A stretch of DNA of 61,738 nt from Candidatus Moraniibacteriota bacterium (GCA_030679985.1 JAUXSI010000028.1:1-61738); one strand, 5' to 3'; numbered from the stretch's first letter, positions 4,067 to 54,566 are shown. Translations and numbers: made by a program. The notes: generated by a model not told the origin, from the letters alone.

Positions 4067-4082
4067 ATTTTTAAAAAATCAC

Positions 4083-40061: not shown

Positions 40062-43000
40062 TTACTGGTCGGAGTCTTTGTCTATCATCATCACGTACAA
40101 AGTCGGGATGACGAAAAGCGTCAGAAAAGAAGAAAGGAATAATCCGAAAATTATGGTCGAGCCCATCGCCAACCAAGTTTCGTTGGAAAGCGTGACGGGC
40201 GTGATGCCGGCGATGGTACAGATGGATGTGATGGAAATCGCTTCCAAGCGCGACTTCCCGGCGTCGACAACCGCTTCGAAAAAAGCGATGCCGGTCCGGA
40301 TATTGAGATTGATCTTATCGACCAAGATGATCGCGTTTTTAACCACGATTCCAAAGAGCGCTACGACCCCGATGAGGGCCGGAAAACTCAGGCTGACCCC
40401 GAACAGCGCCAGGCCGAAAAAAACGCCGATGAGCGCCAACGGGATGGTCACCAACACGATGAAAGTTTTCTTGAAAGAGTTGAACTGGATGACCAGGGTC
40501 GCGATGATCAGGATCAACGCGATGACCATCGCGCGGATGATCGATTGTACCGATTCGGCATTCTGCTCATTTTCCCCGCCATAGGCTATCTCGTAGCCTG
40601 GGGGCAACTTATAATCCTTGATCTTATTTTGGAATTCCGCGACGGCATCAGTAGAAGAGGTTTCCCCGCTCACGCCCGCCGAAAGCAGCACGGCCCGCCG
40701 CTGATTGATGCGGGTTATCTTATCGACTGACGGTTCCAATCTGATTCGCGCGACATCCCGCAAAAAAATCGATTCTCCGGCATTGTTTTTGATCTGCAAG
40801 TTTTGCAAAGCTTCCAGATCGGGAATTTTTCCTTCCCCGAAACGGGCCACGACCTTTATCTCGTCGCCTCCCTTGATTATTTCAGTCACTTCCGTTCCGG
40901 AAATCGCCATCCGTATAGTCGATCCGATGCGTAACGCGTCGATTCCGAGAAGTTCCATCCGGCCGTGATCCAACAAAAAAACATAATCAGCCGGGGAACT
41001 CTTCAATGAAATTTCCGCATCCACGACTCCCGGAACGGAAGATAGGATAGGCTTCAGATCCTGGGCGATGCCATCTAAAACATCCAGATCCTCGCCCAAA
41101 ATCTGCGCTTCAAAAGCCGCTCCGGCTGGCGGACCGCCGCTTAAGGTTTGGACGGTGATGGCCGCTCCCTGGATGTCGGCGATATCCCGTCGGACGACTT
41201 CGGCGAATTCATAGGATTTGAGCGTGCGGTCCTCTTCTTCCTGGAGTTTGATGGTAATCTGGGCCCGATGCGAAGGATTGGCCGAACTGTTTACGAAATT
41301 ACCGCTGAATCCGCCGCTTCCCACGACCGTGGAAAGACTGATGATTTCCGGATAGCCGGCCAACCGTTCTTCCACCTGCGATACGATCTTGCCGGTTTCT
41401 TCCAAGCGCAATCCCACCGGCGCTTCAATATTGATGAACATCAGTTCCGCGTCCGTAACTGGAAAAAATTCACTCTTGACCACCCCCGCGATCGGCAAAG
41501 CGACTGCCGTCAAAAGCAGGACGGTCACGAAAATTACCGTCGCCACCCGCCTTTTTTTCGTAACCAGGATTTTTCTCAGATATTTTTCATAAACCGGAAT
41601 CAACCGGTCAAAACGGATAATGCCGTGGATCAGCCGCGACAAGAACGCGCCGTCCTTATGGTCGCCTTGGGTCCGCAATTTCTCTTTGATCAATCCGTCG
41701 TCGCGCCATTCGCGCTCCATCAATCCGGCATTGGCCAATAATGCAGCTTTCCCTTTCCGGAAATACCAATCCAACATCCAATAGGCTGCGATGGCGCCGG
41801 CGGACATAAGCACGGTCCTGACGACCAGATCAGCGGCATACCAACCGGATATCCCGACAGACGCCGCGAGAGCCAGCCATATGAAAAACATTTTGCGGGT
41901 CAGGCGCACGCGCTCGAGCACCGCCGCCAGCGGATGGTTGATGACCAAGGCTATGGCCAAGGACGCTAAGAGCGTCACCGAAACCGTGATCGGAATGGAA
42001 CGGATATATTCCCCGATGATACCGCTGGCAAAAAGCAACGGCAAAAATGCCCAGACGGTCGTAAGGGTCGTAGTGAACAGGACCACCTTGAAATCGTTCA
42101 ATACCAGCAGAACCGCTTCTTCCGGCGTGAATTTTCCAGTCCGGAGATATTGCTTGGTGGCGCTCACTACGACAATCGCATCATCCACCAAAAGTCCAAG
42201 TGCCAAGATGAGTGAAATCATCGAGAGGAAATTCAAGCTGATCCCGACTTGGAGCATCACGCCGAAAGTCGCGAAAAAAACCAATGGAATCGCCAAGCTT
42301 GCCACCAGTGCCTCCTTGAGTCCGATTACCAGGAACAAAATCGCGAAAACCAAAATGATGGTCAGTATGAAATCATGCACCAGCTGGTCGAAATTCTTCC
42401 TGATTTCTTTGGCCGTATCTATGGTAATGTCATACGTTATGCCGGCCGGAGCGTCTTTGATCATTTCATCCAGCTTCTCTTTCGAAGCGTCCGCCGTCTT
42501 GATGATCGAACCGCCGGTCTTTTTGATTATATCGATATTCACGCTGTCGGCCGGTTTTTCTCCCTGCCGGGAAAAATGGGAGAGGACGGTTTTCTTAATG
42601 GCCCGATCCCGCACCTCCGCCATATCCTTAAGATAAATTATCGCGCCGCCAGCCGTATGGAAAACCGGGATGTTCCCCAAAGCTTCCGCATCGAAAAAAC
42701 GCGCGTCCGTCCGGACGGCATAATTGTAATCATTACCTTGGAAATTGCCGCCCGGAACCTGCGAATTAGCCTCCGCCACGATCCGATTGGCTTCCAGCGG
42801 AGACAAACCGTAGAAAGCCAGTTTTTCCGGATCATAAGCGATTTCAAATTCGCGCTCATCCCCGCCCGAAACCATCACTTCCCGCACGCCGGAAATTTTT
42901 TCCAGCTCCGCTTGGACATCCTCGGCAAAATCGCGCAGAACGAACCCGTCATACGGTCCAGCGATCGAAACGGAAAAAATCGGCGTGTCATCGACTGATA

Positions 43001-43460
43001 TTTCCGCCACGACCGGATCCTCGGCATCCTCGGGTAAATTTTCCCTGGCATCATCGACAGCATCCCGTAATTTCCTGATACTGCCTTCCAGATCAGCCTT
43101 GGCGCTGAATTCCACCGTGATGGACGAAACCGAATTGGAAGAGCTAGATGTGATTTTGTCGATATCCTTAAGGCCCGCAATTTCGGTTTCCAGCTTTTCC
43201 GTCACCAAATCTTCAACATTGGCCGGCGACGCCCCAGGGAAAACCGTCGTCACTATCGCAATCGGAATCTTCACTTCCGGATCGGATTCGACCGGCAAGG
43301 CGATATAGGAATATATTCCCGCACCGGCCAATAGCATTATCAGAAGCAGCACCACCCGGAAATTAGTGACAAAAAAATTCAAAAAACTCTTCCGGAGTTC
43401 CGGCCGGAATTCCAGTTTTTCAAGATATTGGTAATCGGAAGATTTGTTGTTATCAGGCAT
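40062..43460 (-). CDS. RND-family efflux transporter permease (AcrB/HAE-like)
   Basis: 1132 aa with 12-TM topology, two large loops and duplicated halves. Confidence 0.95.
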   Translation of the reverse strand: MPDNNKSSDYQYLEKLEFRPELRKSFLNFFVTNFRVVLLLIMLLAGAGIYSYIALPVESDPEVKIPIAIVTTVFPGASPANVEDLVTEKLETEIAGLKDIDKITSSSSNSVSSITVEFSAKADLEGSIRKLRDAVDDARENLPEDAEDPVVAEISVDDTPIFSVSIAGPYDGFVLRDFAEDVQAELEKISGVREVMVSGGDEREFEIAYDPEKLAFYGLSPLEANRIVAEANSQVPGGNFQGNDYNYAVRTDARFFDAEALGNIPVFHTAGGAIIYLKDMAEVRDRAIKKTVLSHFSRQGEKPADSVNIDIIKKTGGSIIKTADASKEKLDEMIKDAPAGITYDITIDTAKEIRKNFDQLVHDFILTIILVFAILFLVIGLKEALVASLAIPLVFFATFGVMLQVGISLNFLSMISLILALGLLVDDAIVVVSATKQYLRTGKFTPEEAVLLVLNDFKVVLFTTTLTTVWAFLPLLFASGIIGEYIRSIPITVSVTLLASLAIALVINHPLAAVLERVRLTRKMFFIWLALAASVGISGWYAADLVVRTVLMSAGAIAAYWMLDWYFRKGKAALLANAGLMEREWRDDGLIKEKLRTQGDHKDGAFLSRLIHGIIRFDRLIPVYEKYLRKILVTKKRRVATVIFVTVLLLTAVALPIAGVVKSEFFPVTDAELMFINIEAPVGLRLEETGKIVSQVEERLAGYPEIISLSTVVGSGGFSGNFVNSSANPSHRAQITIKLQEEEDRTLKSYEFAEVVRRDIADIQGAAITVQTLSGGPPAGAAFEAQILGEDLDVLDGIAQDLKPILSSVPGVVDAEISLKSSPADYVFLLDHGRMELLGIDALRIGSTIRMAISGTEVTEIIKGGDEIKVVARFGEGKIPDLEALQNLQIKNNAGESIFLRDVARIRLEPSVDKITRINQRRAVLLSAGVSGETSSTDAVAEFQNKIKDYKLPPGYEIAYGGENEQNAESVQSIIRAMVIALILIIATLVIQFNSFKKTFIVLVTIPLALIGVFFGLALFGVSLSFPALIGVVALFGIVVKNAIILVDKINLNIRTGIAFFEAVVDAGKSRLEAISITSICTIAGITPVTLSNETWLAMGSTIIFGLFLSSFLTLFVIPTLYVMMIDKDSDQ

Positions 43461-43461
43461 A

Positions 43462-44550
43462 TTATTGCGTGACTATCTTATCCCCATCCTGGACTAGCCG
43501 GCTTCCATCGATGATGATCAGGCTTCCGGCCGCCAGATCCGTCCGCACCTCGGCGTTTTCCCCGAAAATTTTCACGATTTCCGCCGGATTTTTCTTGGCT
43601 TGCCCGTCTTCCGCCACGAACAGATACGTTTCATTCTGTCCGACCGTCACGGCGGAAAGCGGCAAAATTATCAAATCATCACCCGCGGCTTCCCGCCGGG
43701 CATCGACAAAAACATCGACAACCGTTCCGATAGCCAAAGCGCCAGGCCCGGACGGCACCGCCTCCACCAAAAATCTCTTCGTCGCCGCATCAGCTTGGAT
43801 GGAAACATTGGCGATTTTAGCTGGGGCTTCCTTGCCGCCGCTATCGACAACCACGTTATCCCCCACTTTCACATTCGCCAAGCCTTCCTGGCTCACATAA
43901 AACTTGACTTTGATCTTCTCCGGCCGGGAAACGGTTGCCAAAATTTGTCCGGCCGAAATCGAACCGCCGACCGCGATGTTTTTTGCGGTCACGTAACCAG
44001 TGATCGGCGCCTTGACCAAGCGATTGTCCACCGCCGCGTCCAGCGCGATTTGCGCGTTTTGCTTTTGCAACTTGGCGATGTCTTTGGCAGTCTTATTGTC
44101 CTTCGTGTCATCCTTGTCATAATTCCGCTTAGCCTGGTCATAAGCCTCATCGGATTGCTTGAGCGCGTTTTCCAATTGCTGGATCTGGCCGTTAGCGAAT
44201 CCTTCCTTGCCTACACCCGCTAATCCGGCCGGATCATCGATCCGGACCAAAACTTTTCCGCGCCCCACTTGGTCGCCCAAACGGAAATCCACCGCGGTCG
44301 CTGTCCCATTTAGGCCAGCTATAATGTTTATTTCCTGATCGCCCGCGACAATCGCCGGATACTTGATCCGATCGCGCGATTCTTTCAAATTTTCGATTTT
44401 TTCAACGCCCACCACGGTCGCTTTCTTTTCCGCGACGAAACCGCCCAGACTTTTTTCACTTTCCCGAAAGACAGCCAAGGTAGCCACCAATCCCATTAAG
44501 ACGATTGAAATAAAAACCTTCCGTTTATTTTCTCCGATTATCCTCATCAT
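43462..44550 (-). CDS. RND efflux periplasmic adaptor subunit
   Basis: 362 aa with a signal anchor, a coiled-coil hairpin and lipoyl/beta-barrel segments. Its stop lies 1 nt before the RND gene. Confidence 0.9.
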   Translation of the reverse strand: MMRIIGENKRKVFISIVLMGLVATLAVFRESEKSLGGFVAEKKATVVGVEKIENLKESRDRIKYPAIVAGDQEINIIAGLNGTATAVDFRLGDQVGRGKVLVRIDDPAGLAGVGKEGFANGQIQQLENALKQSDEAYDQAKRNYDKDDTKDNKTAKDIAKLQKQNAQIALDAAVDNRLVKAPITGYVTAKNIAVGGSISAGQILATVSRPEKIKVKFYVSQEGLANVKVGDNVVVDSGGKEAPAKIANVSIQADAATKRFLVEAVPSGPGALAIGTVVDVFVDARREAAGDDLIILPLSAVTVGQNETYLFVAEDGQAKKNPAEIVKIFGENAEVRTDLAAGSLIIIDGSRLVQDGDKIVTQ

Positions 44551-44667
44551 ATTTTTATGGATTATTCTTTAAAAAATCATCTGGCTATCCTACCATCAAA
44601 AGTCGCGCTAGTCAAGGATTAAACGGAGTCGGAAGCCCGCCCATATCGCTATCCGAAGCGCTTATGA

Positions 44668-44700
44668 AACAAAAAGAATAGGGTCCCGATGGACCCTATT
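44668..44700 (-). terminator. Intrinsic terminator of metK
   Basis: AATAGGGTCC-CGAT-GGACCCTATT (10-bp stem), followed by a T-run on the minus strand. Confidence 0.75.
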
Positions 44701-44725
44701 CCTATGCGCTATATTTACTGCGAAG

Positions 44726-45772
44726 CTAGATTTTTTCCCACGGCAAGCTTTCCTTCCCGAAATGTCCATACGCCGCCGTTTCTTGGAAGATTGGCAACCG
44801 AAGGCCCAAAGTTTCGATGATCGCTTGCGGACGGAAATCGAAATTCTTTTTGACGATTTCCGCCAAGCTCTCCCCTTTTTCATTAAGTGCCTCCACCATC
44901 AGCGGTTCAGCTTTGCCGATAGCATAGGCCACGCTCACCAAACATTCCTTGGCAAGGCCTTGGGCCACCATTTGTTTGGCCACATAGCGGGCCATATAAG
45001 CGGCGCTGCGATCAACCTTGGTCGAATCCTTGCCGGAAAAAGCCCCGCCGCCGTGCGGCACCAATCCGCAATACGTGTCCACCATGATTTTCCGGCCGGT
45101 CAATCCCGTATCCGCTTCGAATCCGCCTTGGACGAAATTGCCGGTCGGATTGACCAGAATTTCAATTCCGGAAATGTCCCCGATCACCGGGATGATGACA
45201 CCTTCGATGATTTGCTGGCGGATCTGGGCGCTGTCGATGGACTTGTCATGCTGGCAACTCACCAGCACGGAAGATATTTTTCCGTCATGGACGCTGATTT
45301 GCGTTTTCCCATCCGGACGCATCCAGGCGAAATCCGCGTCATTATTCCTCAGCTCTTCCATTTTTTTCGCCAGCGCATGCACCTTCACGACCGACTCCGG
45401 CATAAATTCCTCCGTTTCGTCCGTCGCGTAGCCATACATTATCCCCTGGTCTCCCGCGCCGCCCGTATCGACTCCCTGGGCGATATCCGGCGATTGCTTG
45501 ACGATCCGCACTGAGATATCCAAATCCTGGTCATAACCGATTTTTTTATATACCTCCCGCGCTATCTTCTCAAAATCGACATCCGCCTTAGTCGTCACTT
45601 CCCCGCCGATGACCAGCGTGCCGTGGCCGCCGAAAGTTTCCACTGCCACGCGGCTCATCGGATCCGCCTTGAGGCAAGCGTCCAAGATAGCATCGGAAAT
45701 CTGGTCACAGACTTTGTCGGGATGGCCGGCCGTGACGCTCTCTACCGTATAAGTTTTTGGTTTATAGAACAT
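44726..45772 (-). CDS. metK: S-adenosylmethionine synthase (methionine adenosyltransferase), short form
   Basis: 348 aa with ESVTAGHPDKVCDQISDAILD, GAGDQGIMYGYA and GGGAFSGKDSTKVDRSAAY. Confidence 0.95.
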   Translation of the reverse strand: MFYKPKTYTVESVTAGHPDKVCDQISDAILDACLKADPMSRVAVETFGGHGTLVIGGEVTTKADVDFEKIAREVYKKIGYDQDLDISVRIVKQSPDIAQGVDTGGAGDQGIMYGYATDETEEFMPESVVKVHALAKKMEELRNNDADFAWMRPDGKTQISVHDGKISSVLVSCQHDKSIDSAQIRQQIIEGVIIPVIGDISGIEILVNPTGNFVQGGFEADTGLTGRKIMVDTYCGLVPHGGGAFSGKDSTKVDRSAAYMARYVAKQMVAQGLAKECLVSVAYAIGKAEPLMVEALNEKGESLAEIVKKNFDFRPQAIIETLGLRLPIFQETAAYGHFGKESLPWEKI

Positions 45773-46410: not shown

Positions 46411-47079
46411 ATGAAAATTCTTATTATCGAAGACAATGAGGATATCGCCGAATCACTGAAGATGAGCCTGGAAGAACATTGCTTCGCCGTGGATGTCGCC
46501 AAAGACGGGGAAAGCGGCGCCTATCTGGCCAAAACCAACAACTACGACCTCATCATCCTGGATTACGTCCTTCCGAAAAAAGACGGCTACCAGGTCTGCA
46601 AGGAGATACGCGAAAGGAAAAGCGACGTATATATCATCGCTATGTCGGTCAAAACGGATGTTGAAACGAAAGTCGATCTCTTGGAAACAGGGGCTGATGA
46701 TTATATCATCAAGCCTTTTTCTTTTTCCGAAGTCCTAGCCAGGATCAATGCCCTGCTCAGGCGGTCGCGGGACATCAAACCGCCTATCATCAAATTCGAT
46801 GATTTCACCCTGGACACCCGGAATTATTCCGTAAAAAAAGGCGACGAGGAAATATATCTGACCCGCAAAGAAGCGATGATACTGGAAACCCTGGCAAAAA
46901 ACAAGGGTCGGATAGTTTCCCGATCGATGATTTTCGAAGAAGTCTATGACACCAACGCCGATTTCCTTTCCAACGCCATCGAAATGCACATCCGCAACCT
47001 GAGGAAAAAATTAGGCGGCAAAAAAGACGCGACATCCATAAAAACGTTCCCGGGACGCGGTTATATGATCGAAGGATAA
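46411..47079 (+). CDS. Response regulator, OmpR/PhoB family
   Basis: Start at Met49 (MKILIIEDNEDIAESL...). Receiver Asp in DLIILDYVLPKKDG and a C-terminal winged helix (...LTRKEAMILETL...IEMHIRNLRKKL...GRGY). Confidence 0.9.
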   Translation: MKILIIEDNEDIAESLKMSLEEHCFAVDVAKDGESGAYLAKTNNYDLIILDYVLPKKDGYQVCKEIRERKSDVYIIAMSVKTDVETKVDLLETGADDYIIKPFSFSEVLARINALLRRSRDIKPPIIKFDDFTLDTRNYSVKKGDEEIYLTRKEAMILETLAKNKGRIVSRSMIFEEVYDTNADFLSNAIEMHIRNLRKKLGGKKDATSIKTFPGRGYMIEG

Positions 47080-47125
47080 GGACTGCCATCCATCATTATC
47101 CTTTCTTTAACTTAAATTTATCCGG

Positions 47126-47153
47126 TTGACTTATACTGGAATAGTGTTGTAAT
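47126..47153 (+). promoter_or_regulatory. Sigma-70-type promoter between the regulator and kinase genes
   Basis: TTGACT (47126-47131), a 16-nt spacer, then TGTAAT (47148-47153) with an upstream TG (47145-47146). Confidence 0.5.
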
Positions 47154-47220
47154 TCGAGTCTTATTAAAAGGTCGGGAAGACTCAGACGTTTTACGCACAA
47201 TAAACAATAACACCAAAAAA

Positions 47221-47340
47221 ATGGATAAACTTATCAAAGAAATCCTTACCAAGAAAGCGACCCGTAACAGCGCGGCCTTAGTCGCCCTGATTGCGGCAGT
47301 GATGGTCGCAGGATCACCATGGAACGCGCCACAAATCTAG
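47221..47340 (+). CDS. Possible 39-aa small hydrophobic protein (or part of a non-coding leader)
   Basis: ORF below the track cutoff: MDKLIKEILTKKATRNSAALVALIAAVMVAGSPWNAPQI*. It has no SD, lies between a promoter (47126) and a terminator (47364), and has one TM-like segment. Confidence 0.3.
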   Translation: MDKLIKEILTKKATRNSAALVALIAAVMVAGSPWNAPQI

Positions 47341-47363
47341 TCGCCGGAAACGATCGCACACAT

Positions 47364-47400
47364 TAGCCGGCTGATGCGGTTTGTCGGCCGGCTATTTTTT
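47364..47400 (+). terminator. Intrinsic terminator upstream of the kinase start
   Basis: TAGCCGGC (47364-47371) pairs with GCCGGCTA (47387-47394), followed by TTTTTT (47395-47400). Confidence 0.6.
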
Positions 47401-47419
47401 AACCCTATCGGAAACGCCT

Positions 47420-48835
47420 ATGTTTGGAAAAATAATCGTTTTTTTAAAAAAAACCGTCACGCCCGTTTCGTCCGACGAAGACAAAGCGCGGCGGGAATTC
47501 ATCGCCAATATTCTTTTATTATCAAGTATCTTCTTGATATTTGCAGCTTTCATCGCAAATTTAATATATCAACTTGGAAACACCCAGCCATCACTAGCCG
47601 CTAAATTCATCTTGATACCATTCTTCCTTTTGGTTGCGCTATACGTTCTTTCTCGCAAGGGGTATTTTTATTATTCTTCGTTTCTTCTTTTATTCACACT
47701 TTTTTTGTTTGCCAGCGCCATGGGATATTATTGGGGCGTAGATTTGGAAGTTGAACTTTTCATATATGTCCTCGTTGTAGTGATGTCTGGAATACTGATC
47801 AGTGCCCGCGCTTCTTTCGTGGCAATGTGTTGCGTAAATGCCTTTCTTATTATTACTGGATTTCTACACGGCACCCAAACAGTTATTCCGGATAGATCAT
47901 GGAGAACTGCTGAGCTTTGGGATTTTGGAGAAATATCGATGACTTCCGTAATCTTTCTTACTATCGCTACCGTTTCCTGGCTTTCCAACCGTGAAATCGA
48001 AAAATCCCTGCGCAGAGCCCGCCGATCGGAAGCGGAACTGAGAAAAGAACGTGATTCCCTGGAAATCACCGTGGAAAAAAGGACGCGCGAACTCAAAGAG
48101 GTGCAATTGGCGGAAATGGCCCATCTCTACCGCTTCGCGGAATTCGGCCGCCTCTCCGCAGGGCTCTTCCATGACCTGATAAATCCGCTCAATGCCGTAT
48201 CGCTCAATATGGAAAAAGTCAAAATCCGGGATTGCTATAAAAACGAAGTGGACGAAGCCAAAAACTATCTGGACAAATCCATCGTGGCGGTCAGAAAAAT
48301 GCAAGATTTCGTAGCGGCGGTCAGAAAACAAATATCCCACCAAGCGGAAGACAAATCATCCATTCCCCTGCACGAAGAAATCCGCCAGGTAGTGGATATA
48401 TTGGCCCACAAGGCTTTGCAGAACGACATCGAAATCAAATTTTCATTTTCTAGCGATATCAACATCTTCGGCAATGCGATCAAATTCAACCAGGTGGCGA
48501 TGAATCTCGTAAACAACGCGATAGACGCTTATAGCGGTTTTGACGGAAAATTCGACGCGAAAAATAAAACCCGCGAAGTTTCCATCACTCTGGACGAAGA
48601 GGACGGCGTGGTAAGTCTGGTCGTCCAAGACAACGGCGCCGGCATCTCCGAAAACAATATGCGCCGGATATTCGAACCTTTTTTCAGCACCAAAAATTCC
48701 AATAAAGGCGCCGGCATCGGCCTCTCATTGGTGAAAAGGATCGTCGAAGAGGATTTCAACGGCACGATATCCGTCGAAAGCCGGGAGAATATCGGCACTA
48801 AATTCACCGTTAAATTCAATAAAATAAAAAAATGA
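47420..48835 (+). CDS. Sensor histidine kinase with six-TM, loop-less sensor domain
   Basis: Start taken at Met14 (MFGKIIVF...), downstream of the terminator. Six TM helices have short loops. H-box LSAGLFHDLINPLN, N-box NLVNNAIDA, G1 DNGAGI and G2 GAGIGLSL are present. Confidence 0.88.
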   Translation: MFGKIIVFLKKTVTPVSSDEDKARREFIANILLLSSIFLIFAAFIANLIYQLGNTQPSLAAKFILIPFFLLVALYVLSRKGYFYYSSFLLLFTLFLFASAMGYYWGVDLEVELFIYVLVVVMSGILISARASFVAMCCVNAFLIITGFLHGTQTVIPDRSWRTAELWDFGEISMTSVIFLTIATVSWLSNREIEKSLRRARRSEAELRKERDSLEITVEKRTRELKEVQLAEMAHLYRFAEFGRLSAGLFHDLINPLNAVSLNMEKVKIRDCYKNEVDEAKNYLDKSIVAVRKMQDFVAAVRKQISHQAEDKSSIPLHEEIRQVVDILAHKALQNDIEIKFSFSSDINIFGNAIKFNQVAMNLVNNAIDAYSGFDGKFDAKNKTREVSITLDEEDGVVSLVVQDNGAGISENNMRRIFEPFFSTKNSNKGAGIGLSLVKRIVEEDFNGTISVESRENIGTKFTVKFNKIKK

Positions 48836-50655
48836 AAGAACTTTATCTCCGCCTCAACAGCCGTCAACAAGAAGATGGCAGCTTCTTGGATGCTGCCGGT
48901 TCCCCATCGATATTACATACCGCATTGATCCTGTCAGCCCTGGAAAAATCCGGACAAGACCCGCTGATCGAAAAAATCAGGGACAAGGCCGCCAGATTCC
49001 TTCTGTCCAGAAAAGATGCCGATTGGAAATTCTCCCCGGAAACCGGCCTCAACTTCTTCGCCCTAGCAGCTTTGGCGGCTTATGACAAAAATCTGCTAGA
49101 TGGAGAAGCGATGGCTAAAATCCTGATCGATCTGACCTCGCTGGAAAGCCAGGAGGGCGGTCCGTATTTTTCACGAGCTGAAGACCGGAGCATCGACCTA
49201 GCAACCAATGCCGGCATCGCGAACTTCCTGTCAGAAGAAGGAGTGGAATTGCCGGAACTGACGAAGTTATTCGAAAACGCCATCCGAACGAAAAATTTCA
49301 AATCTTCTTTTTTCACCTCGGACTATCCGGCCATCTATTTGATTTCAAAGATCTGCCCGGAAGGCCGCAAGCAGGAATTCATAAATTTCATCTTGGAAAA
49401 AAATAACCGGGAAAGGGGCGTTGCCAGCCTATTGGAAACCGTCTTGGCGCTGAACGCGCTTTTGAATTTAGGCCATCAGGGCGAGGAAGCGCAAGACATC
49501 CTGAACTATCTGGAAAATTCAACTGAGCGACTGGATTCCACCTACCCATTCTATGTGGATGGGAACGGCCTGCCGGTGGACAGTACGGCCGATTTGAACG
49601 GGGCATTGTATCTGGAAGCTTTGCGCAAAAAAGAATCTCCCTCCCGCCAAAATCAAAACGGACCGGTCGCGGATCTGGACGGCCCGGAAAAAGAAATGTT
49701 GGAATCGATTTTGGCAACCGCCGAAAAAAGGTTCGCCCATCTTCCTGCAGAAGTCCAAAAACTGGCCGGACGCGAAATCAGAAAAACCATCAGCGGAAAC
49801 CGCGACAACCAGATGTCGCTTATGGCCTATTATATGAAAAAATCCCTGGGCGAAAAGGCGGCAGGAATTCCCGATTCCCTGGTAGCCGAAATGGGATTGG
49901 CCAACGTATTTTTCTGGACGGCCTTCATCATCTATGACGATTTCTGGGACGAAGACGAAGCGGCCGATACTGCCGTCTTGCCGGTGGCTAACCTATACGC
50001 CCGCAGTTATGTCGATTTTTTCAACTTCGTCCTGCCAGCGGAAACCGGCTTTAACGAATTTTTTCACGGGCTTATGGACGGTTCGGACGCGGCCAATACT
50101 TGGGAAAACCTCCATTGCCGCACGAAAGTCGAGGGCTCAAAATTTTTCATCCCTAAAAACTTGCCTGATTACGGGGATTACGACCTCAAATACCGTCCGG
50201 CTTCCGGCCAGATATTAGGACCGGTGGCGATGCTGGTCCGGTTGGGCTATGGATTGGAATCCCCCGAAGTGACGAACCTGGTCGCCTATTTCAAAAACTA
50301 TCTGATCGCGATGCAATTGAATGACGACGCGCACGACTGGGAAGAAGATATGAAGCGGGGCCACCTGAGCACGGTCGTCACTTTGCTCCTGAAAGATCTG
50401 GATTGGCCGGAAGATTCCATCGACCTGGAAACCGACCTGGAAGAACTGCGGAAGGTTTTCTGGTTCAAAACGATCGGCAAAGCGGCCCAGGCAGCCGCTT
50501 CCTACGCGGAAAAATCGCGGCAAGCCCTTGCCGCGATAACCATTCTGGAAAATGCGGCGCCTCTGGAAAAAATCATCAACGCCACGGAAAGCGTCGCCCG
50601 CAAAGCCCTGAAGGAACAGGCAGACACCGTCAGTTTTTTGCAAACATACCATTGA
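48832..50655 (+). CDS. Two-domain isoprenoid-enzyme-like protein: N-terminal alpha/alpha-toroid repeats and a C-terminal helical domain with two DDxxD motifs
   Basis: 607 aa with RQQEDGSF (aa 11-18), SQEGGPYF (aa 106-113), FIIYDDFWDEDE (D369-D373) and MQLNDDAHDWEED (D498-D502). Its ATG overlaps the kinase stop (ATGA). Confidence 0.7.
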   Translation: MKELYLRLNSRQQEDGSFLDAAGSPSILHTALILSALEKSGQDPLIEKIRDKAARFLLSRKDADWKFSPETGLNFFALAALAAYDKNLLDGEAMAKILIDLTSLESQEGGPYFSRAEDRSIDLATNAGIANFLSEEGVELPELTKLFENAIRTKNFKSSFFTSDYPAIYLISKICPEGRKQEFINFILEKNNRERGVASLLETVLALNALLNLGHQGEEAQDILNYLENSTERLDSTYPFYVDGNGLPVDSTADLNGALYLEALRKKESPSRQNQNGPVADLDGPEKEMLESILATAEKRFAHLPAEVQKLAGREIRKTISGNRDNQMSLMAYYMKKSLGEKAAGIPDSLVAEMGLANVFFWTAFIIYDDFWDEDEAADTAVLPVANLYARSYVDFFNFVLPAETGFNEFFHGLMDGSDAANTWENLHCRTKVEGSKFFIPKNLPDYGDYDLKYRPASGQILGPVAMLVRLGYGLESPEVTNLVAYFKNYLIAMQLNDDAHDWEEDMKRGHLSTVVTLLLKDLDWPEDSIDLETDLEELRKVFWFKTIGKAAQAAASYAEKSRQALAAITILENAAPLEKIINATESVARKALKEQADTVSFLQTYH

Positions 50656-50704
50656 AAATTCCTGCTGGCGGACGCGATGGAAATTAAGCATTAAACATCC
50701 GACT

Positions 50705-51259
50705 ATGCCGAATGAAATCATTCTCGTTGATAAAAAAGACCGGGTGGCCGGAGCCGCTTCCAAAATAGAAGTCCATCAGAAAGGAAAATTGCACCGGGCT
50801 TTTTCCATTTTCATCTTCAACCGGAAAGGAGAACTGCTTCTGCAACAGCGGGCTGATGGCAAATACCACTCCGGCGGACTCTGGACCAACACCTGCTGCG
50901 GACACCCGCGTCCCGGGGAAACGGTTGCTTCCGCCGCCCGCCGCAGGCTCCGGGAGGAAATGGGACTCGATTGCCAATTGACGAAAATATTCGATTTCAT
51001 CTACCGGGCCAAATTGGATAACGCTATGTGGGAATACGAATTCGACCATGTCCTGATCGGAAAATTCAACGGAAAACCGAAAATCAACCCCGCCGAAGCC
51101 GCGGCCTTCAAGTGGATCGACCGGAAATCCCTAGCTCGCGATATCCGGCAAGATCCGCGCGGATATACCCGGTGGTTCAAAAAATGCTACATCCAAGTTT
51201 TCAAGGCGACTAAGGATAAAACGCCCTTCAAGCAGATCAGCGACCCAGTACGAAATTAA
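50705..51259 (+). CDS. idi: Isopentenyl-diphosphate delta-isomerase, type 1 (Nudix fold)
   Basis: 184 aa with KGKLHRAFSIFIFNRKGELLLQQRA..K...GLWTNTCCGHP and RRLREEMG, then EYEFDHV. These are the catalytic Cys and Glu contexts of type 1 IDI. Confidence 0.9.
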   Translation: MPNEIILVDKKDRVAGAASKIEVHQKGKLHRAFSIFIFNRKGELLLQQRADGKYHSGGLWTNTCCGHPRPGETVASAARRRLREEMGLDCQLTKIFDFIYRAKLDNAMWEYEFDHVLIGKFNGKPKINPAEAAAFKWIDRKSLARDIRQDPRGYTRWFKKCYIQVFKATKDKTPFKQISDPVRN

Positions 51260-52208
51260 AAAGATAGCCGGTAAATACGATGCCCGCGCCGACGATGCCC
51301 GCAAAAATAAGGATAAGCTTGATTTTCATCACTTTTTTGAGAATCATAAACTCCGGCAGCGAGAGCGCGGTGACGGCCATCATAAAAGCTAAAGCAGTTC
51401 CCATAGCGACGCCCTTTTCAGTTAATGCCCCGACGAGCGGAATTACCCCGGCCGCATTGGAATAGAGCGGGATGCCGATGAACACTGCCAATGGCACGGC
51501 ATACCACCTGTCCGCTCCGGCGTATTGCGCCAGGGCCGCAGTCGGCACATAACCATGGATCCACGCGCCGACGCCGACGCCGATAACGATATAGGGCCAA
51601 ACTTTTTTTATAATATCCCAAGTATAATTCTTGGCATACTTCACTCTTTCTTCCCAAGCCATTTCCGGCAACTGGAACTGGCCGTTGAGCTTGTTTTTAT
51701 AGACGAATTCTTCCACCAGATTTTCAACTTTCAATTTGCCGATAATGATTCCGGAAAAAATAGAGATGATAAGTCCGCTGACGATATAAAGCAAAGCGAT
51801 TTTCCAGCCAAACATTCCAAATAAAAGAACTAGCGCCACTTCATTGATCATTGGCGACGCGACTAAAAAAGAGAAGGTTGTCCCTAGCGGTACGCCAGCC
51901 TGTACAAAACCCAGAAATAACGGCACAGCCGAGCAAGAACAAAAGGGGGTGATGATCCCCAGAAACGATGCCAGAATATTGCCGACATATTTTTTTTCGT
52001 GCGAGAGGATATTTCTGATTTTTTCCGGAGGAAGAAACGAACGGATGATGGAAACGGTGAAAATAATCACAACCAGAAGCAGGAAAATCTTGATTGTGTC
52101 GTAAATGAAAAAATCGACCACTTCAGCCAATAGCGTCTTGGGCATGATTCCGAAAACGGAATACGTCAGCCAATCAGCCAATATTTGGACAGGATAAAAT
52201 ATGTTCAT
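51237..52208 (-). CDS. Permease of the PF03773-like (ArsP/'predicted permease') family with a CxC motif
   Basis: 323 aa with about 8 TM helices and ...ITPFCSCSAVPLFLGF.... Last gene of the ArsR-controlled cluster. Its 3' end overlaps the convergent idi gene by 23 nt. Confidence 0.8.
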   Translation of the reverse strand: MNIFYPVQILADWLTYSVFGIMPKTLLAEVVDFFIYDTIKIFLLLVVIIFTVSIIRSFLPPEKIRNILSHEKKYVGNILASFLGIITPFCSCSAVPLFLGFVQAGVPLGTTFSFLVASPMINEVALVLLFGMFGWKIALLYIVSGLIISIFSGIIIGKLKVENLVEEFVYKNKLNGQFQLPEMAWEERVKYAKNYTWDIIKKVWPYIVIGVGVGAWIHGYVPTAALAQYAGADRWYAVPLAVFIGIPLYSNAAGVIPLVGALTEKGVAMGTALAFMMAVTALSLPEFMILKKVMKIKLILIFAGIVGAGIVFTGYLFNFVLGR

Positions 52209-52308: not shown

Positions 52309-53028
52309 TCAGGATAGATTGATTAAATATTTAACGAGATATCGGAGATAATAAATTCCAGTTATCATAAAAATAGCCGCCACGGAATAGCGCATCGCTT
52401 TTTCGATCTTACCCATCGCGTTATACATCTTGCCCACCTTCTCCACGCTGAACGCCAAAATGATTGAAAAGATTATCACTGGCAAGCCTGTTCCTAGAGC
52501 GAATAATGGAGGTAAAAGCAAGCTTTCACTTGATGATAAAACCAATGGGACGAGCATTCCAAAAAATAAAACTCCGCTATATGGACAAAACGCCAGAGCG
52601 AACAAAACTCCCAGAAGTAAAGTTCCGATATGCCCCTTAGTTGCCAGCCACTCCTTGGCTTTTTCCACTTTCCTACTTTTGGAACCGAAATTGATTTTTA
52701 TCACCCCGAACATAACGAGAGAAATCAAAATCAAAACGATTCCCAAAATTTTATCTCCCCAGCCCTGAAAAATACTGGCAATCGAAAAAGCCGAGAAACC
52801 GAAATAAATCAGCGTCGCCAAAAGCGTATAGCTCATTCCTCTTCCCAGCGTATAAATCAAACCGCTGACCAGCGTATGCTTGGGAGTTTTTATGTCTTTG
52901 GAAATATAGGCAATGGCAGTGATGTTGGTCGCCAAAGGACAAGGGCTGATGGAAGTCATCACGCCCAAAAGAAAAGCCGTGAAAAGCGGAAAATTATATT
53001 GGTCGATTAAGGCGTTTAAAAATTCCAT
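52309..53028 (-). CDS. DsbD_2/CcdA-like thiol-disulfide membrane protein (ArsG-family-like, tentative)
   Basis: 239 aa with 6 TM helices. The N-terminal helix contains ...GVMTSISPCPLATNITAIAYI... Confidence 0.7.
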   Translation of the reverse strand: MEFLNALIDQYNFPLFTAFLLGVMTSISPCPLATNITAIAYISKDIKTPKHTLVSGLIYTLGRGMSYTLLATLIYFGFSAFSIASIFQGWGDKILGIVLILISLVMFGVIKINFGSKSRKVEKAKEWLATKGHIGTLLLGVLFALAFCPYSGVLFFGMLVPLVLSSSESLLLPPLFALGTGLPVIIFSIILAFSVEKVGKMYNAMGKIEKAMRYSVAAIFMITGIYYLRYLVKYLINLS

Positions 53029-53132
53029 TATACAAATTGATTTTTATTGGTTATTCCATGCAACAATCGATTGCACGCCTCACTAGCTCCCTCAACTTTC
53101 CGGTAAATCCGGTCGGGGGTCATTTTACTTAC

Positions 53133-53930
53133 TCAGTTTAATTTTTGCTTAAACAAATCAATGATGTCTTTTTCATTCGTATAGCATTTCCCGTCCGCCC
53201 AAAGAAACGGAACCCCGAATGCTTCAGGGTCGACATTGCACCGCATGGCGTCTTCTGCCATCTGTTCCGCATCAGTTTCATTTTTGTCAACATTTTTTTC
53301 TTCAAAAGCCATTTTTTCTTTCACGCCATTGTCCGCCAAATATTTTTGAATATTAACGCAATTTGGGCAATTATCTCCGGAATAAAAAGTGATGTTCATT
53401 TTTTCCATCTCTTTTTGAGTTCCAGCGGAAACCGTTTCGCCGATCATCCCTCGCAATTTTTTGGACAGATAATCGGAAAGAGCCTTCTGGTCTCCTAAAA
53501 GCCTCCAGGCCTGCGCCTCTTCTTGGATGTTGTCTTGGCCGTCAATGATGGCATTCAAAAACAGCGAGGTGCCGGCTGCTTGGAATTTGGCCGCCACTGC
53601 TTTGTTCTCCGGCAAATCCACGTTTATTTCCCTGAACTCAAGTTTACCGCTTTTAATTTCCGTCTGGAAGGATTCATCAACCATCGTCTTGATATATTGC
53701 CCCATCGTTATGCAGGAATAACAACGGTTAGTGGAGTGAAATTCATATATCTGGACTTTCTCCGCCGGTTTGGTTTGTCGAACTTCCGCTGCTCCGGAAT
53801 TGTCCGCTTGCACGTTCGCATCAGTATCGATTGATTCGGTCTTTTTGTCCGGTCCGACGCTTATATAAATGAGCGCAATAGCAAAAAATAACACTCCCCC
53901 ATAAAGCAAATATATTCCTAACTTTTTCAT
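53133..53930 (-). CDS. Membrane-anchored fusion of two thioredoxin-fold modules (ArsF-like CxxC domain plus glutaredoxin/NrdH-like CxxC domain)
   Basis: 265 aa with an N-terminal TM helix. First module: ...IYEFHSTNRCYSCITMGQYI. Second module: ...ITFYSGDNCPNCVNIQKYL...GVPFLWADGKCY. Confidence 0.65.
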   Translation of the reverse strand: MKKLGIYLLYGGVLFFAIALIYISVGPDKKTESIDTDANVQADNSGAAEVRQTKPAEKVQIYEFHSTNRCYSCITMGQYIKTMVDESFQTEIKSGKLEFREINVDLPENKAVAAKFQAAGTSLFLNAIIDGQDNIQEEAQAWRLLGDQKALSDYLSKKLRGMIGETVSAGTQKEMEKMNITFYSGDNCPNCVNIQKYLADNGVKEKMAFEEKNVDKNETDAEQMAEDAMRCNVDPEAFGVPFLWADGKCYTNEKDIIDLFKQKLN

Positions 53931-53955
53931 AGAATGGTCTTATTCCGATGATTAT

Positions 53956-54249
53956 TTAACAATTTCCGCCACAAGAACAAATCCCTACGGAATCATCAGT
54001 AGGCTTATTATCCGCGAACATCTTCCTAAGCTCCTCTACGCCAGGCACCATCCCAGCCACCAATACCTTTTCATCCACCACGAGTGCCGGTGTGCTCATA
54101 ATTCCATAGCCCATAATATCTTCGATTCGGGTAACTTTTTCAACGACTGCCTCCATCTTCAGTTCCTCCAGGGCTCGCTTGGTGTTTTGTTCCAATCGTT
54201 GGCAGTTAGGGCATCCGGTGCCCAGAATTTTGATGTTCATTTGGTTCAT
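53956..54249 (-). CDS. Small thioredoxin-family protein (redox-active disulfide protein 2 type)
   Basis: 97 aa with IKILGTGCPNCQRLEQNTKRAL...STPALVVDEKV and an extra C-terminal CSCGGNC. Confidence 0.85.
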   Translation of the reverse strand: MNQMNIKILGTGCPNCQRLEQNTKRALEELKMEAVVEKVTRIEDIMGYGIMSTPALVVDEKVLVAGMVPGVEELRKMFADNKPTDDSVGICSCGGNC

Positions 54250-54566
54250 TTGATTATTTGATTAAAAAATTTCTTGTATTTCCTGATAGTTTTCCTATCC
54301 AAGCTGTAGCGGACAAACTTACCTTCCCGTTTTTCAACCAGAAGTCCGATGGCTTTCAAATGTTTGAGATGATGTGAAGCCAACTTATCCGATATGCCGA
54401 CGGCCGGAACGATCTCGCAAACGCACTTCGGACCGGTTTGCAAGATACAAAGGATTTTCAGCCTATTGGAATCCGAAACGGCGCGCAAAAAAGCGTATGT
54501 TTTGCCGACATTTTCCGCTTCAGTTGAATTTTTCGCGCAACATCTGAATTCCATAGGGCGTATCAT
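54246..54566 (-). CDS. ArsR/SmtB-family transcriptional regulator
   Basis: 106 aa with ...LRAVSDSNRLKILCILQTGPKCVCEIVPAVGISDKLASHHLKHLKAIGLV..., a winged HTH with a CVC metal/metalloid-sensing motif. Confidence 0.9.
   Translation of the reverse strand: MIRPMEFRCCAKNSTEAENVGKTYAFLRAVSDSNRLKILCILQTGPKCVCEIVPAVGISDKLASHHLKHLKAIGLLVEKREGKFVRYSLDRKTIRKYKKFFNQIIK

Follow-up and report, generated by a model that had tools for sequence, protein, structure and literature searches.

The window analysed here is a stretch of 61,738 nt from Candidatus Moraniibacteriota bacterium (GCA_030679985.1, JAUXSI010000028.1:1-61738). At 46411-50655 it carries four neighbouring genes, all on the plus strand, for an OmpR-type response regulator, a small "leader unit" described below as a peptide gene, a six-helix histidine kinase and a 607-residue protein with two DDxxD motifs, and these are followed by a type-1 isopentenyl-diphosphate isomerase gene (idi; Table 1). 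An earlier reading made from the sequence alone (the sequence-only reading) had given this gene order and strand, and every element was recovered at the same position. The idi gene begins 49 nt past the enzyme stop, with no terminator detected in between.

Table 1. Features of the locus, in coordinates of the window.
Feature	Coordinates	Strand	Details
OmpR-family response regulator, 222 aa	46411-47079	+	Pfam Response_reg 97 bits, Trans_reg_C 76 bits
Candidate regulator-binding region	47095-47125	+	block upstream of the -35 hexamer, kept in the closest relative, L002
Promoter-like site of the peptide gene	47126-47153	+	TTGACT, 16 nt, TGTAAT; TG at 47145-47146; read from the sequence
5'-leader hairpin	47156-47183	+	GAGTCTT / loop ATTAAAAGGTCGGG / AAGACTC; conserved GGTCG loop motif
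Precursor-peptide gene, 39 aa	47221-47340	+	MDKLIKEILTKKATRNSAALVALIAAVMVAGSPWNAPQI; invariant Trp = W34 (47320-47322)
Terminator-like hairpin between peptide gene and kinase	47364-47400 (hairpin 47364-47394)	+	13-bp stem and T-run
Polytopic 6-TM histidine kinase, 471 aa	47420-48835	+	HATPase_c 88 bits; H-box FHDLINPL
Kinase TGA overlapping enzyme ATG	48832-48835	+	ATGA, read in the sequence
Enzyme ORF, 607 aa	48832-50655	+	DDFWD aa 369-373, DDAHD aa 498-502
Enzyme N-domain (aa 1-270)	48832-49641	+	alpha/alpha toroid, class II terpene-cyclase-like; AF2 model, Foldseek
Enzyme C-domain (aa 284-607)	49681-50652	+	trans-IPPS fold; FARM DDFWD 49936-49950, Gln495 50314-50316, SARM DDAHD 50323-50337
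Type-1 isopentenyl-diphosphate isomerase (idi)	50705-51259	+	NF002995 170.2 (cut-off 127); TIGR02150 129.5 (cut-off 105.8)

The locus was compared with 79 related loci, all from Patescibacteria wherever the taxonomic label is credible. The kinase gene stands immediately 5' of the enzyme gene in 75 of them, an arrangement far from chance, and a regulator ortholog is present in 64, usually directly 5' and on the same strand (in five loci it is encoded downstream, on the other strand). A homologous small ORF separates regulator and kinase in 67 loci and also occurs in L028, L081 and L082; the peptide gene was seen in essentially every related locus whose sequence extends 5' of the kinase. All other genes recur in at most 11 loci each. 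The conserved core therefore comprises four genes, those for the peptide, kinase, enzyme and regulator, and idi is an optional add-on outside it, since it is linked in only 7/79 loci (9%) and in L081. The coupling of a two-component system to isoprenoid genes proposed in the sequence-only reading thus holds for an enzyme of isoprenoid-synthase fold, whose linkage to two-component genes proved near-universal in the neighbourhood survey, but not for idi; the refuting outcome named in that reading, enzyme homologs never found beside such genes, was not observed. No account of the four-gene cassette in Patescibacteria was found in the literature searched, and its spread within the group is patchy (3%). 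In two loci (L010 and L011) the enzyme is present and the kinase, regulator and peptide are absent nearby, which speaks against a signalling role. No protease, exporter or immunity transporter is conserved with the cassette among the related loci; a signalling role would thus leave release of the signal unexplained, as it is for ComX.

Upstream of the peptide gene, the promoter-like site reads TTGATT...TGTAAT in L002, and in the window it was left unlisted by an automatic promoter scan because TGTAAT has G rather than A at the second hexamer position. The adjoining segment TTATCCTTTCTTTAACTTAAATTTA is near-identical in the window and L002, with diverged intergenic sequence flanking it in their alignment, and may be where the regulator binds. 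Direct repeats had been anticipated as regulator sites near 47100-47160; no clear ones were found. The 5'-leader hairpin matched no Rfam family, and its stem sequences vary from locus to locus. Its loop motif, [GA]GTCG[AG], occurs in 51/68 loci; in 41 of these 51 it sits 30-52 nt 5' of the peptide ATG, and an enclosing stem of 6 bp or more occurs in 34 of the 51, vs 22% of flank-shuffled controls. The terminator-like hairpin is kept in L002, where changes are confined to the loop, and by a lenient scan 29 of 68 loci have such a hairpin behind the stop codon of the peptide gene.

With its own promoter-like site, 5' hairpin and terminator, the "leader unit" is a genuine, conserved protein-coding gene, a coding nature that the sequence-only reading had missed while noting the unit itself. 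Between the window and L002 the gene differs by 11 synonymous and two non-synonymous changes, which marks it as real and under purifying selection. The 70 distinct peptides are 34-42 aa long, and their sole invariant features are an N-terminal leader motif (xxLIKEILTxKxxR; L9 in 70/70, R15 in 69/70) and one Trp near the C-terminus. This Trp is followed by one to six residues in every peptide and is commonly preceded by P at -1 (62/70) and G at -3 (49/70). Many peptides are amphipathic or hydrophobic. The middle region is hydrophobic in some peptides and hydrophilic in others, and is therefore without constraint to form a transmembrane (TM) helix. In about a third of the peptides it is hydrophobic enough for one; such peptides might act as small membrane proteins with a direct effect on kinase activity, an observation that tells against signalling by a modified peptide. 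The genome holds a single copy of the gene, and each locus has one precursor.

The kinase ORF is open from 47381, and ATG 47420 is the likely start because the terminator hairpin spans 47364-47394. The sequence-only reading had described a sensor of six closely spaced TM helices with no extracytoplasmic domain. Hydropathy gives five clear segments and a weaker sixth, and the AF2 model (pLDDT 82.6) agrees with that description, placing helices at residues 20-53, 61-79, 83-105, 110-126, 129-151 and from 169 onward, joined by loops of 7, 3, 4, 2 and 17 aa. The sixth helix continues straight into the DHp helix, and the model contains no HAMP, PAS or extracytoplasmic domain. W161, within the 17-aa loop between the fifth and sixth helices, is invariant. 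A polytopic sensor without an extracellular domain is also what receptors of lipidated or cyclic peptides have.

Pfam and NCBIfam profile searches with the 607-aa enzyme gave no match. PF00348 was matched weakly by 5/66 homologs (best E 0.013) and not by the window protein, and the enzyme reached no ComQ-type model either. The peptide likewise had no match to Pfam ComX (PF05952), and both shortfalls count against a signalling reading. The AF2 model of the enzyme (pLDDT 93.9) combines an alpha/alpha-toroid N-domain with a trans-IPPS-fold C-domain. In Foldseek searches the toroid matched drimenol and drimenyl-PP synthases (9m7f, 9mhs, 9q3i; E 6e-5), with 1sqc also listed, and some homologs have weak Pfam matches to SQHop_cyclase_C and Prenyltrans. 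E105, GGPY109-112 and N126 are invariant in this domain and E105, E108 and D122 are its conserved acidic residues. No DxDD occurs within residues 1-270, although cyclases with other acid motifs exist as a possibility. Residues 160-270, half of the toroid, are missing from many shorter homologs (444-540 aa).

The closest structural matches of the C-domain are IPPS rather than terpene synthases, with TM-scores up to 0.74 to octaprenyl/polyprenyl diphosphate synthases (5ze6_D, 4jyx_F) and 0.65 to the indole prenyltransferase Ord1 (9v4h_B). Residues D369, D373, Q495, N497, D498, D499, D502 and D506 are invariant in alignments of 66 and 49 homologs. Furthermore, none of the metal-binding Asp in the two motifs varies among more than 1,200 sequence clusters, a pattern indicative of a catalytic protein. 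Alignment with canonical IPPS by hhalign pairs FARM with FARM and SARM with SARM. In comparison with chain-elongating trans-IPPS (FPPS, GGPPS, OPPS; PF00348), the fold is shared, FARM and SARM are likewise about 130 residues apart, and the Q-x-x-DD and D-x-x-x-G-(K/H)-x-(T/S) segments align; however, the cassette family lacks the RRG after the FARM, and the GKxxR IPP-binding loop reads G-N-x-D-x-Q-M. A housekeeping, chain-elongating IPPS was rejected as an identity for the enzyme, given the loss of RRG and GKxxR and the canonical synthase elsewhere in the genome.

The genome has a housekeeping isoprenoid route in the form of IspH and a canonical polyprenyl_synt protein (191 bits) whose gene adjoins UppS. 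Since these are encoded separately, the enzyme is not the source of isoprenoids for the membrane or cell wall. A canonical IPPS gene directly adjoins the cassette in five loci. In the reading preferred below, such an IPPS or idi would occasionally be enlisted as a source of prenyl donor for the cassette enzyme.

The overlap of the kinase stop and enzyme start noted in the sequence-only reading was confirmed; the two genes overlap or lie at most 20 nt apart in about 55 of 69 loci, 14 of which show the identical 4-nt overlap. In L081 and L082 they are naturally fused in full, with the enzyme at the kinase C-terminus. Kinase and enzyme are accordingly regarded as coupled in translation, or as one fused protein. 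Such a fusion would equally fit an enzyme domain with a sensory role, or one under the control of the kinase, which counts against a purely signalling interpretation. Synteny in 75/79 loci, the recurring stop/start overlaps and the fusions support the two-component system and the DDxxD enzyme as a functional unit. The earlier statement that such coupling lacks precedent needs qualification, since kinase and enzyme genes adjoin in PalP/PalX/PalQ (PMC10853753) and ComQXPA (PMC4008528), although no case of translational coupling or fusion of a kinase with such an enzyme was found in described systems.

Characterised trans-IDS-like peptide prenyltransferases all act on Trp (PMC13290415), and a Gln just upstream of the SARM is common to Trp-prenylating IPPS-like enzymes and Ord1 (PMC13290415; bioRxiv 10.64898/2026.08.29.745113). 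The cassette enzyme has the trans-IPPS fold, the DDxxD FARM and this Gln, and a cognate Trp peptide gene lies nearby, with only the kinase gene in between. Mg2+-dependent prenyl transfer to the Trp indole is therefore its predicted activity.

The nearest parallel in layout is ComQXPA, in which enzyme, peptide, kinase and regulator are likewise encoded by four adjoining same-strand genes, gene overlaps are common, and there is no dedicated exporter or protease (Dogsa et al., 2014; PMC4008528). Both systems combine a polytopic histidine kinase with a small precursor that bears Trp close to its C-terminal end and with an enzyme of the IPPS-superfamily fold that has a DDxxD FARM. The parts differ in family and order (A-X-P-Q here, Q-X-P-A in ComQXPA). 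ComQ is a single PF00348 domain of about 300 aa, whereas the cassette enzyme has two domains; ComX (PF05952) has 52-73 aa with Trp within the last 5-10 residues, and the cassette peptide is shorter. ComP combines a multi-TM N-terminus with HisKA_3 (PF07730) and HATPase_c, and HisKA_3 was not detected in the cassette kinase, which has HATPase_c behind its six helices; ComA is of the NarL/GerE type (Response_reg and GerE, PF00196), unlike the OmpR-type cassette regulator with Trans_reg_C. A 2014 census found ComQXPA confined to Firmicutes (PMC4008528), whereas the cassette host belongs to Patescibacteria.

In PalP/PalX/PalQ of Paenibacillus alvei, too, a histidine kinase and a prenyltransferase are clustered with a Trp-tailed precursor whose leader is conserved (Miyata et al., 2023; PMC10853753). 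PalQ belongs to the isoprene-synthase superfamily, was earlier annotated only as a terpene synthase, accepts DMAPP, GPP and FPP, and retains both FARM and SARM like the cassette enzyme, whereas ComQ and StheQ have a pseudo-SARM. The complete SARM of the cassette enzyme counts against a ComQ-like role, although PalQ shares it. However, PalQ is single-domain, and PalX carries a large leader of the NHLP type and ends strictly in its Trp, as against a 16-aa leader and residues beyond the Trp in the cassette peptide (PMC10853753). No sequence similarity to PalP/PalX/PalQ was detected with the tools used. ChrPC, as described in a review, joins a trans-IDS-like Trp prenyltransferase and a terpene-cyclase-like domain in one polypeptide, and a maturase of this type targets a Trp inside a ribosomal peptide (Hubrich et al., 2024, via PMC13290415). 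Set against that description, the cassette toroid is N-terminal, without DxDD and half-deleted in many homologs, and two-component coupling is the defining feature of the cassette. Outside Firmicutes, StheQ/StheX of Sphaerobacter thermophilus pairs an IPPS-fold enzyme with an adjoining small Trp-tailed peptide (bioRxiv 10.64898/2026.08.29.745113). In StheQ the FARM binds the donor via Mg2+ and the diphosphate is touched by a Gln that lies one turn of helix ahead of the second motif; it differs in its NDxxD pseudo-SARM, single domain and lack of reported kinase or regulator coupling (bioRxiv 10.64898/2026.08.29.745113).

We read the cassette as a self-contained prenylated-peptide signalling system similar to ComQXPA and PalPXQ, with a probability of about 0.5. 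Its own promoter would give a short, hairpin-bounded message for the 39-aa peptide, with some read-through into the kinase, enzyme and idi genes. The leader would dock the peptide onto the cytoplasmic enzyme, whose C-domain would bind an allylic diphosphate via its two Asp-rich motifs and Mg2+ and transfer the prenyl group to the indole of W34, as with ComQ, PalQ, StheQ and the P domain of ChrPC. The toroid may hold the peptide or process the attached prenyl chain, and donor supply would be raised by idi here and by a canonical polyprenyl synthase at other loci. The lipidated peptide would then enter or cross the membrane and be detected by the six-helix sensor, and the kinase would phosphorylate the regulator, which would control the peptide promoter and further targets. 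If so, the two-component system does not tune lipid synthesis but belongs to a cassette that makes and senses a signal, as the Bacillus ComX system does with different parts.

The same chemistry could serve another end. The prenylated peptide might chiefly be a bioactive lipopeptide, antimicrobial or aimed at the host cells to which these episymbionts attach. The two-component system would then serve autoinduction or protection of the producer, in the manner of NisRK with nisin, rather than population sensing. Control by OmpR-type regulators with HisKA-type kinases is known from lantibiotic operons, and a patchy distribution suits an accessory, conflict-related trait. Many of the cassette peptides are amphipathic or hydrophobic. 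Prenylation makes peptides more active on membranes (review PMC13290415). However, the lack of a conserved immunity transporter or exporter, the one precursor copy per locus and genome, and the tight kinase-enzyme coupling with fusions, which suggest that sensing is central, leave this use of the peptide unlikely, if still deserving of some weight.

On the model of the sequence-only reading the kinase senses the state of the membrane or envelope and, via the regulator, governs an enzyme for the synthesis or cyclisation of a free isoprenoid, for example a membrane lipid or surface terpenoid; the small ORF would then be an accessory membrane peptide or leader. The intramembrane sensor, the occasional idi or IPPS neighbours, the weak Terpene_synth_C matches in 5/66 homologs and the pairing of the toroid with an Asp-rich domain of class I type, in a beta-alpha layout reminiscent of terpene synthases, are all compatible with it. 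Yet the toroid has neither DxDD nor, in many homologs, its second half, the C-domain resembles IPPS, idi is rarely linked, a regulated biosynthetic enzyme has no need of fusion to its kinase, and the invariant Trp and conserved leader of an often hydrophilic-middled peptide would go unexplained. With housekeeping isoprenoid synthesis encoded separately, and a Trp peptide that this account had overlooked, control of isoprenoid supply by a membrane-state signal is quite improbable; the cassette logic matches that of ComQXPA and PalPXQ, and therefore the kinase's likely signal is the modified peptide. Very improbable, too, is a non-catalytic 607-aa protein that senses prenyl diphosphate or a polyprenyl-linked wall intermediate in the cytoplasm on behalf of the kinase, with the peptide as a modulator like MgrB or SafA. 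Patescibacteria rely on scarce lipid precursors, and translational coupling, C-terminal fusion and the share of peptides resembling single-pass membrane proteins would suit such a module; but sensor domains normally stand before the DHp domain, the invariant metal-binding Asp indicate catalysis, and a Trp kept near the peptide C-terminus finds no role there.

For the signalling system itself, peptide-core similarity tracks enzyme C-domain similarity best (rho 0.57, a weak point that phylogeny confounds). The least conserved parts by pairwise identity are the peptide core at 27%, the N-domain of the enzyme at 30% and the TM domain of the kinase at 32%, whereas the regulator is the most conserved at 47%.

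The key to reading the locus is a 39-codon gene overlooked by most gene callers, which lies between the OmpR-type regulator and the histidine kinase and encodes MDKLIKEILTKKATRNSAALVALIAAVMVAGSPWNAPQI. In the sequence-only reading this gene was a leader unit, followed by the kinase, a DDxxD enzyme and idi on the plus strand, and open reading frames and domain scans return the same order. The ATGA at 48832-48835, shared by the kinase stop (TGA) and the enzyme start (ATG), is present as claimed, and a six-helix transmembrane sensor without an extracytoplasmic domain is borne out by hydropathy and by an AlphaFold2 model of the kinase based on 44 orthologs (pLDDT 82.6). The modelled helices are connected by loops of 7, 3, 4, 2 and 17 residues, the sixth is continuous with the DHp helix, and the model has no HAMP, PAS or periplasmic domain. 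Hydropathy, model and overlap therefore leave that earlier observation correct in all its items. Three genes adjoin the cassette (regulator, peptide gene, kinase and enzyme) on its upstream side: an efflux pump of the RND type, 1,132 aa long, and its membrane-fusion protein, both named by eye from the translations, and an S-adenosylmethionine synthetase that Pfam confirms and that is short at 348 aa. Downstream, a convergent ArsP-type permease shares the last 23 nt of idi (51237-51259), and the stretch from ArsP to an ArsR-like regulator looks like a thiol/metal-handling cluster with no relation to the cassette. The cassette of the closest relative (L002) is also flanked by MetK and ArsP, so this local context is common only to the window and that relative.

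Coordinates of the cassette, its neighbours and features of related loci (handles beginning with L denote loci collected for comparison; all other positions refer to the window)
Feature	Position	Strand	Basis or remark
RND-type efflux pump, membrane-fusion protein, S-adenosylmethionine synthetase	40062-45772	-	
OmpR-type response regulator	46411-47079	+	ORF listing and domain scan
Promoter-like TTGACT-16 nt-TGTAAT	47126-47153		Read from sequence
Hairpin 5' of peptide ORF	47156-47183		
Peptide ORF	47221-47340	+	
Terminator-like hairpin 3' of peptide ORF	47364-47400		13-bp stem and T-run
Histidine kinase	ends 48835	+	ORF listing and domain scan
607-aa enzyme ORF	48832-50655	+	ORF listing; Pfam, NCBIfam: no match
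Type-1 isopentenyl-diphosphate isomerase (idi)	50705-51259	+	NF002995, 170 bits (cut-off 127)
ArsP-type permease	51237-52208	-	PF03773, 278 bits
Membrane protein, thioredoxin-like proteins, ArsR-like regulator	52309-54566	-	Last three judged by eye
Natural kinase-enzyme fusion	L081:1548-4604		Single ORF, 1,018 aa; regulator and Trp peptide upstream
Natural kinase-enzyme fusion	L082:365-3433		Single ORF, 1,022 aa; regulator and Trp peptide upstream
Adjacent canonical PF00348 synthase	L053:3353-4369		
Adjacent canonical PF00348 synthase	L061:7841-8908		
Adjacent canonical PF00348 synthase	L068:6272-7309	-	
Adjacent canonical PF00348 synthase	L072:6315-7370		
Adjacent canonical PF00348 synthase	L077:5018-6076		
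Com-like zinc-ribbon gene	L005:7770-8243		
Com-like zinc-ribbon genes	L081:4682-4873, 5212-5400		
Com-like zinc-ribbon genes	L082:3526-3714, 4013-4201		
Lone enzyme homolog	L011:5992-7707		

Searches with the 607-aa protein matched only 'hypothetical proteins' from Patescibacteria/CPR metagenome bins, and a profile of its C-terminal domain (C-domain) retrieved 1,211 clusters at E <=1e-30 and 1,502 at <=1e-10 from 1.84 billion representatives. Scanning one genome per GTDB species gave 79 related loci, hosted by Paceibacteria/Parcubacteria, Magasanik-, Doudna-, Moran-, Falkow- and Kaiserbacteria, CPR2 and Saccharimonadales, with some bins under other-phylum labels that are evidently automatic. 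The enzyme was found in 12 of 400 other genomes forming an even sample of the phylum, and the cassette is thus patchy and accessory; the resulting prevalence of 3% is apparently a new figure, as far as we have seen. Whether kinase, regulator and idi co-occur with homologs of the enzyme was a check suggested in the sequence-only reading, and tblastn with the window's proteins showed such linkage for the two signalling genes but rarely for idi. A kinase ortholog lies immediately 5' of the enzyme in 75 of the 79 loci (a contig end accounts for two of the remaining four) and the regulator is present in 64 (five times downstream on the opposite strand), whereas idi is linked in only seven (downstream in three, upstream in four) and in the fusion locus L081, where a NUDIX (idi-like) gene precedes the regulator. 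No other gene recurred in more than 11 loci when all locus ORFs were clustered. In about 55 of 69 loci the stop codon of the kinase overlaps the start codon of the enzyme or is at most 20 nt away from it, and in some metagenomic contigs both proteins are joined in a single chain of about 1,020 aa with the regulator and peptide gene still upstream. In two loci, L011 and L010, an enzyme homolog stands by itself, flanked by recA and a type I restriction-modification system, and none of its usual partners (kinase, regulator, peptide) is encoded close by.

A profile made from the small ORFs matched the window and 67 of the 79 loci, in each case directly upstream of the kinase; the loci without a match are almost all cut off upstream. 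Among the 70 distinct peptides (34-42 aa), 69 have exactly one Trp, and that Trp is invariant, with Pro before it in 62 of 70, Gly at -3 in 49 and one to six residues after it. The conserved motif comprises the first 16 residues (L9 in 70/70, R15 in 69/70), and the stretch from this leader to the Trp is hydrophobic in 24 peptides, hydrophilic in another 24 and intermediate in 22; the hydrophilic group rules out an obligate transmembrane protein as a general rule. Lanthipeptide-type chemistry by a LanC-like toroid is likewise ruled out, Cys being present in only two of the 70 peptides. Pfam and NCBIfam scans of the peptide gave no matches. Judged from sequence, a conserved leader followed by a variable core, with one invariant residue open to modification close to the C-terminus, is the layout of a RiPP or pheromone precursor, and specifically that of ComX-type peptides (PMC4008528).

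The promoter, hairpin and terminator stem that flank the peptide gene in the window are all kept in L002, whose enzyme is 72% identical, and one hairpin stem pair is altered there on both sides with pairing retained. The peptide ORF differs between the two by 11 synonymous and two non-synonymous substitutions, a pattern that marks it as translated. This synonymous excess, and protein-level conservation in about 70 loci, rule out an ORF arising by chance or the leader of an attenuator. Direct repeats for regulator binding, expected near 47100-47160, were not recovered beyond short chance-level matches; the region is conserved with L002 and no motif was definable. The peptide-gene leader of the window (at 47156-47183) and that of 51 of 68 related loci carry a [GA]GTCG[AG] motif, mostly AAGGTCGA, which lies 30-52 nt upstream of the peptide ATG in 41 of the 51 and usually sits in a hairpin loop, the stem sequence varying between loci. 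Stems of at least 6 bp surround it in 34 of 51 loci vs 22% of shuffled controls. Saccharimonadales-type loci lack the GTCG motif and have instead a strong AAGGAGGTG Shine-Dalgarno sequence. An Rfam search matched the leader hairpin to no family, a genome-wide search for further GGTCG hairpins gave 40 matches that are noise, none in comparable context, and the 8-mer is not enriched within the window. Candidate roles for the hairpin are a 5' stabiliser, a site for the regulator or for translational control, and an operator. The peptide gene's own promoter and terminator and the conserved GGTCG leader hairpin appear, to the extent of our searches, to be new.

The enzyme model (66 homologs; pLDDT 93.9, pTM 0.86) has two domains. 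Residues 284-607 are all-alpha and superpose on trans-polyprenyl diphosphate synthases with TM-scores of at most 0.74; the score against Ord1, an indole prenyltransferase of IPPS fold, is 0.65. Invariant residues of this C-domain include D369 and D373 of the first Asp-rich motif (FARM, DDFWD) and Q495, N497, D498, D499, D502 and D506 around the second (SARM, in Q-L-N-DDAHD-WEED). Profile-profile alignment with canonical IPPS of the related loci and this genome places FARM on FARM and SARM on SARM; the enzyme has no RRG after the FARM, and its loop matching IPPS GKxxR reads G-N-x-D-x-Q-M. A canonical polyprenyl synthase (polyprenyl_synt) adjoins UppS on contig 19 of this genome and IspH is present, so the 607-aa protein is not the housekeeping enzyme; with the IPP-binding motifs also absent, a housekeeping FPP/GGPP synthase is ruled out. 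The enzyme profile found nothing relevant in a PDB sequence search, and Pfam and NCBIfam scans of the C-domain gave no matches. Residues 1-270 form an alpha/alpha toroid whose best PDB matches are the class II terpene-cyclase domains of drimenol and drimenyl-diphosphate synthases (E 6e-5), with squalene-hopene cyclase farther down the list. The toroid has a conserved core at residues 60-145 (E105, GGPY109-112, D122, N126) and no DxDD motif, and residues 160-270 are missing from many homologs of 444-540 aa; these features make a peptide-binding or scaffolding role appear no less likely than a cyclase activity. In full-length members such as the window enzyme the toroid could conceivably cyclise the prenyl group, by analogy with the cyclisation reported for ChrPC (review PMC13290415). 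The evidence that half of the toroid is dispensable is, so far as we can tell, new.

ComQ, PalQ, StheQ and the P domain of ChrPC are described as IPPS-superfamily enzymes (PMC13290415; PMC10853753; bioRxiv 10.64898/2026.08.29.745113), and in the review's account every characterised enzyme of this type prenylates Trp (PMC13290415). A Gln immediately before the second Asp motif is presented as common to Trp-prenylating IPPS-like enzymes (PMC13290415; bioRxiv 10.64898/2026.08.29.745113). PalQ keeps the full SARM, as does the 607-aa family, and was earlier annotated only as a terpene synthase (PMC10853753). In fold and in motifs the predicted enzyme agrees with trans-IDS-like Trp prenyltransferases, with ComQ, PalQ and ChrPC compared by their published descriptions. 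The gene layout and Trp position used in the ComQXPA census are found in the cassette (PMC4008528), but PF00348, PF05952, HisKA_3 and GerE are all missing; the cassette is not a ComQXPA member, though likened to it here, and its parts look independently recruited. ComQXPA was found only in Firmicutes by the 2014 census (PMC4008528), and Chloroflexi have been added as hosts of ComQ-like pairs in a preprint of 2026 (bioRxiv 10.64898/2026.08.29.745113). A full-text literature search returned no relevant link of ComQXPA or ComQ with Patescibacteria, CPR or Saccharibacteria.

The simplest model covering all conserved features, to which we give a probability of about one half, is a circuit resembling ComQXPA or PalPXQ. 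The C-domain would prenylate the peptide on its Trp, the six-helix kinase would sense the prenylated peptide and relay the signal to the OmpR-type regulator, and idi would act as a local donor-supply gene. Across 52 complete cassettes, pairwise identity is lowest in the peptide core (27%), enzyme N-domain (30%) and kinase transmembrane region (32%) and highest in the regulator (47%). Similarity of the peptide core follows that of the enzyme C-domain most closely (rho 0.57), a relation that is confounded by shared ancestry and nonetheless suggestive for this reading of the cassette. A more tentative extension is that Patescibacteria have a lipidated-peptide pheromone system of their own, independent of ComQXPA, in which the enzyme is coupled or fused to the kinase and the toroid makes a cyclic terpenoid-peptide hybrid; such coupling would tie signal production mechanistically to perception.

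The same chemistry might instead yield chiefly a bioactive lipopeptide with nisin-like autoinduction, which we consider unlikely. Control of free terpenoid synthesis by membrane state, as proposed in the sequence-only reading, leaves the peptide and the weak idi linkage unexplained and is improbable. The kinase-enzyme fusions would also agree with an enzyme-like protein serving as ligand sensor for the kinase, yet the invariant catalytic Asp residues are at odds with this, and it is about as improbable. Patescibacteria (CPR) are ultra-small, mostly episymbiotic bacteria that make up a large part of bacterial diversity and have very few known regulatory circuits; we know of no cell-cell signalling system described in them. 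If the prenylated-peptide circuit is true, they would gain a first candidate for a signalling molecule and for its receptor, and Trp-prenylated ribosomal peptides would reach a new phylum and a new enzyme architecture, in which a toroid and an IPPS-like domain are coupled or fused to a kinase. More than 1,200 sequence clusters that at present are called 'hypothetical protein' would then also have a family name.

In five mostly Saccharimonadales loci a canonical PF00348 polyprenyl diphosphate synthase (162-205 bits) directly adjoins the cassette, occupying the place of idi in the window. Precursor-supply genes of different kinds have been recruited independently beside the cassette, and their recurrence agrees with the use of an allylic diphosphate by the enzyme. 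A Com-like zinc-ribbon gene, absent from the window, lies on the same strand 50-270 nt 3' of the enzyme in about 27 of the 79 loci and shows no evident correlation with the GGTCG hairpin in the locus lists. Its product has 62-63 aa; a longer form of 157 aa matches PAS weakly. Com of phage Mu is a translational activator that binds mRNA. The zinc-ribbon protein could be a fifth component of the cassette or its output, and its recurrence is apparently a new observation within the literature we have seen.
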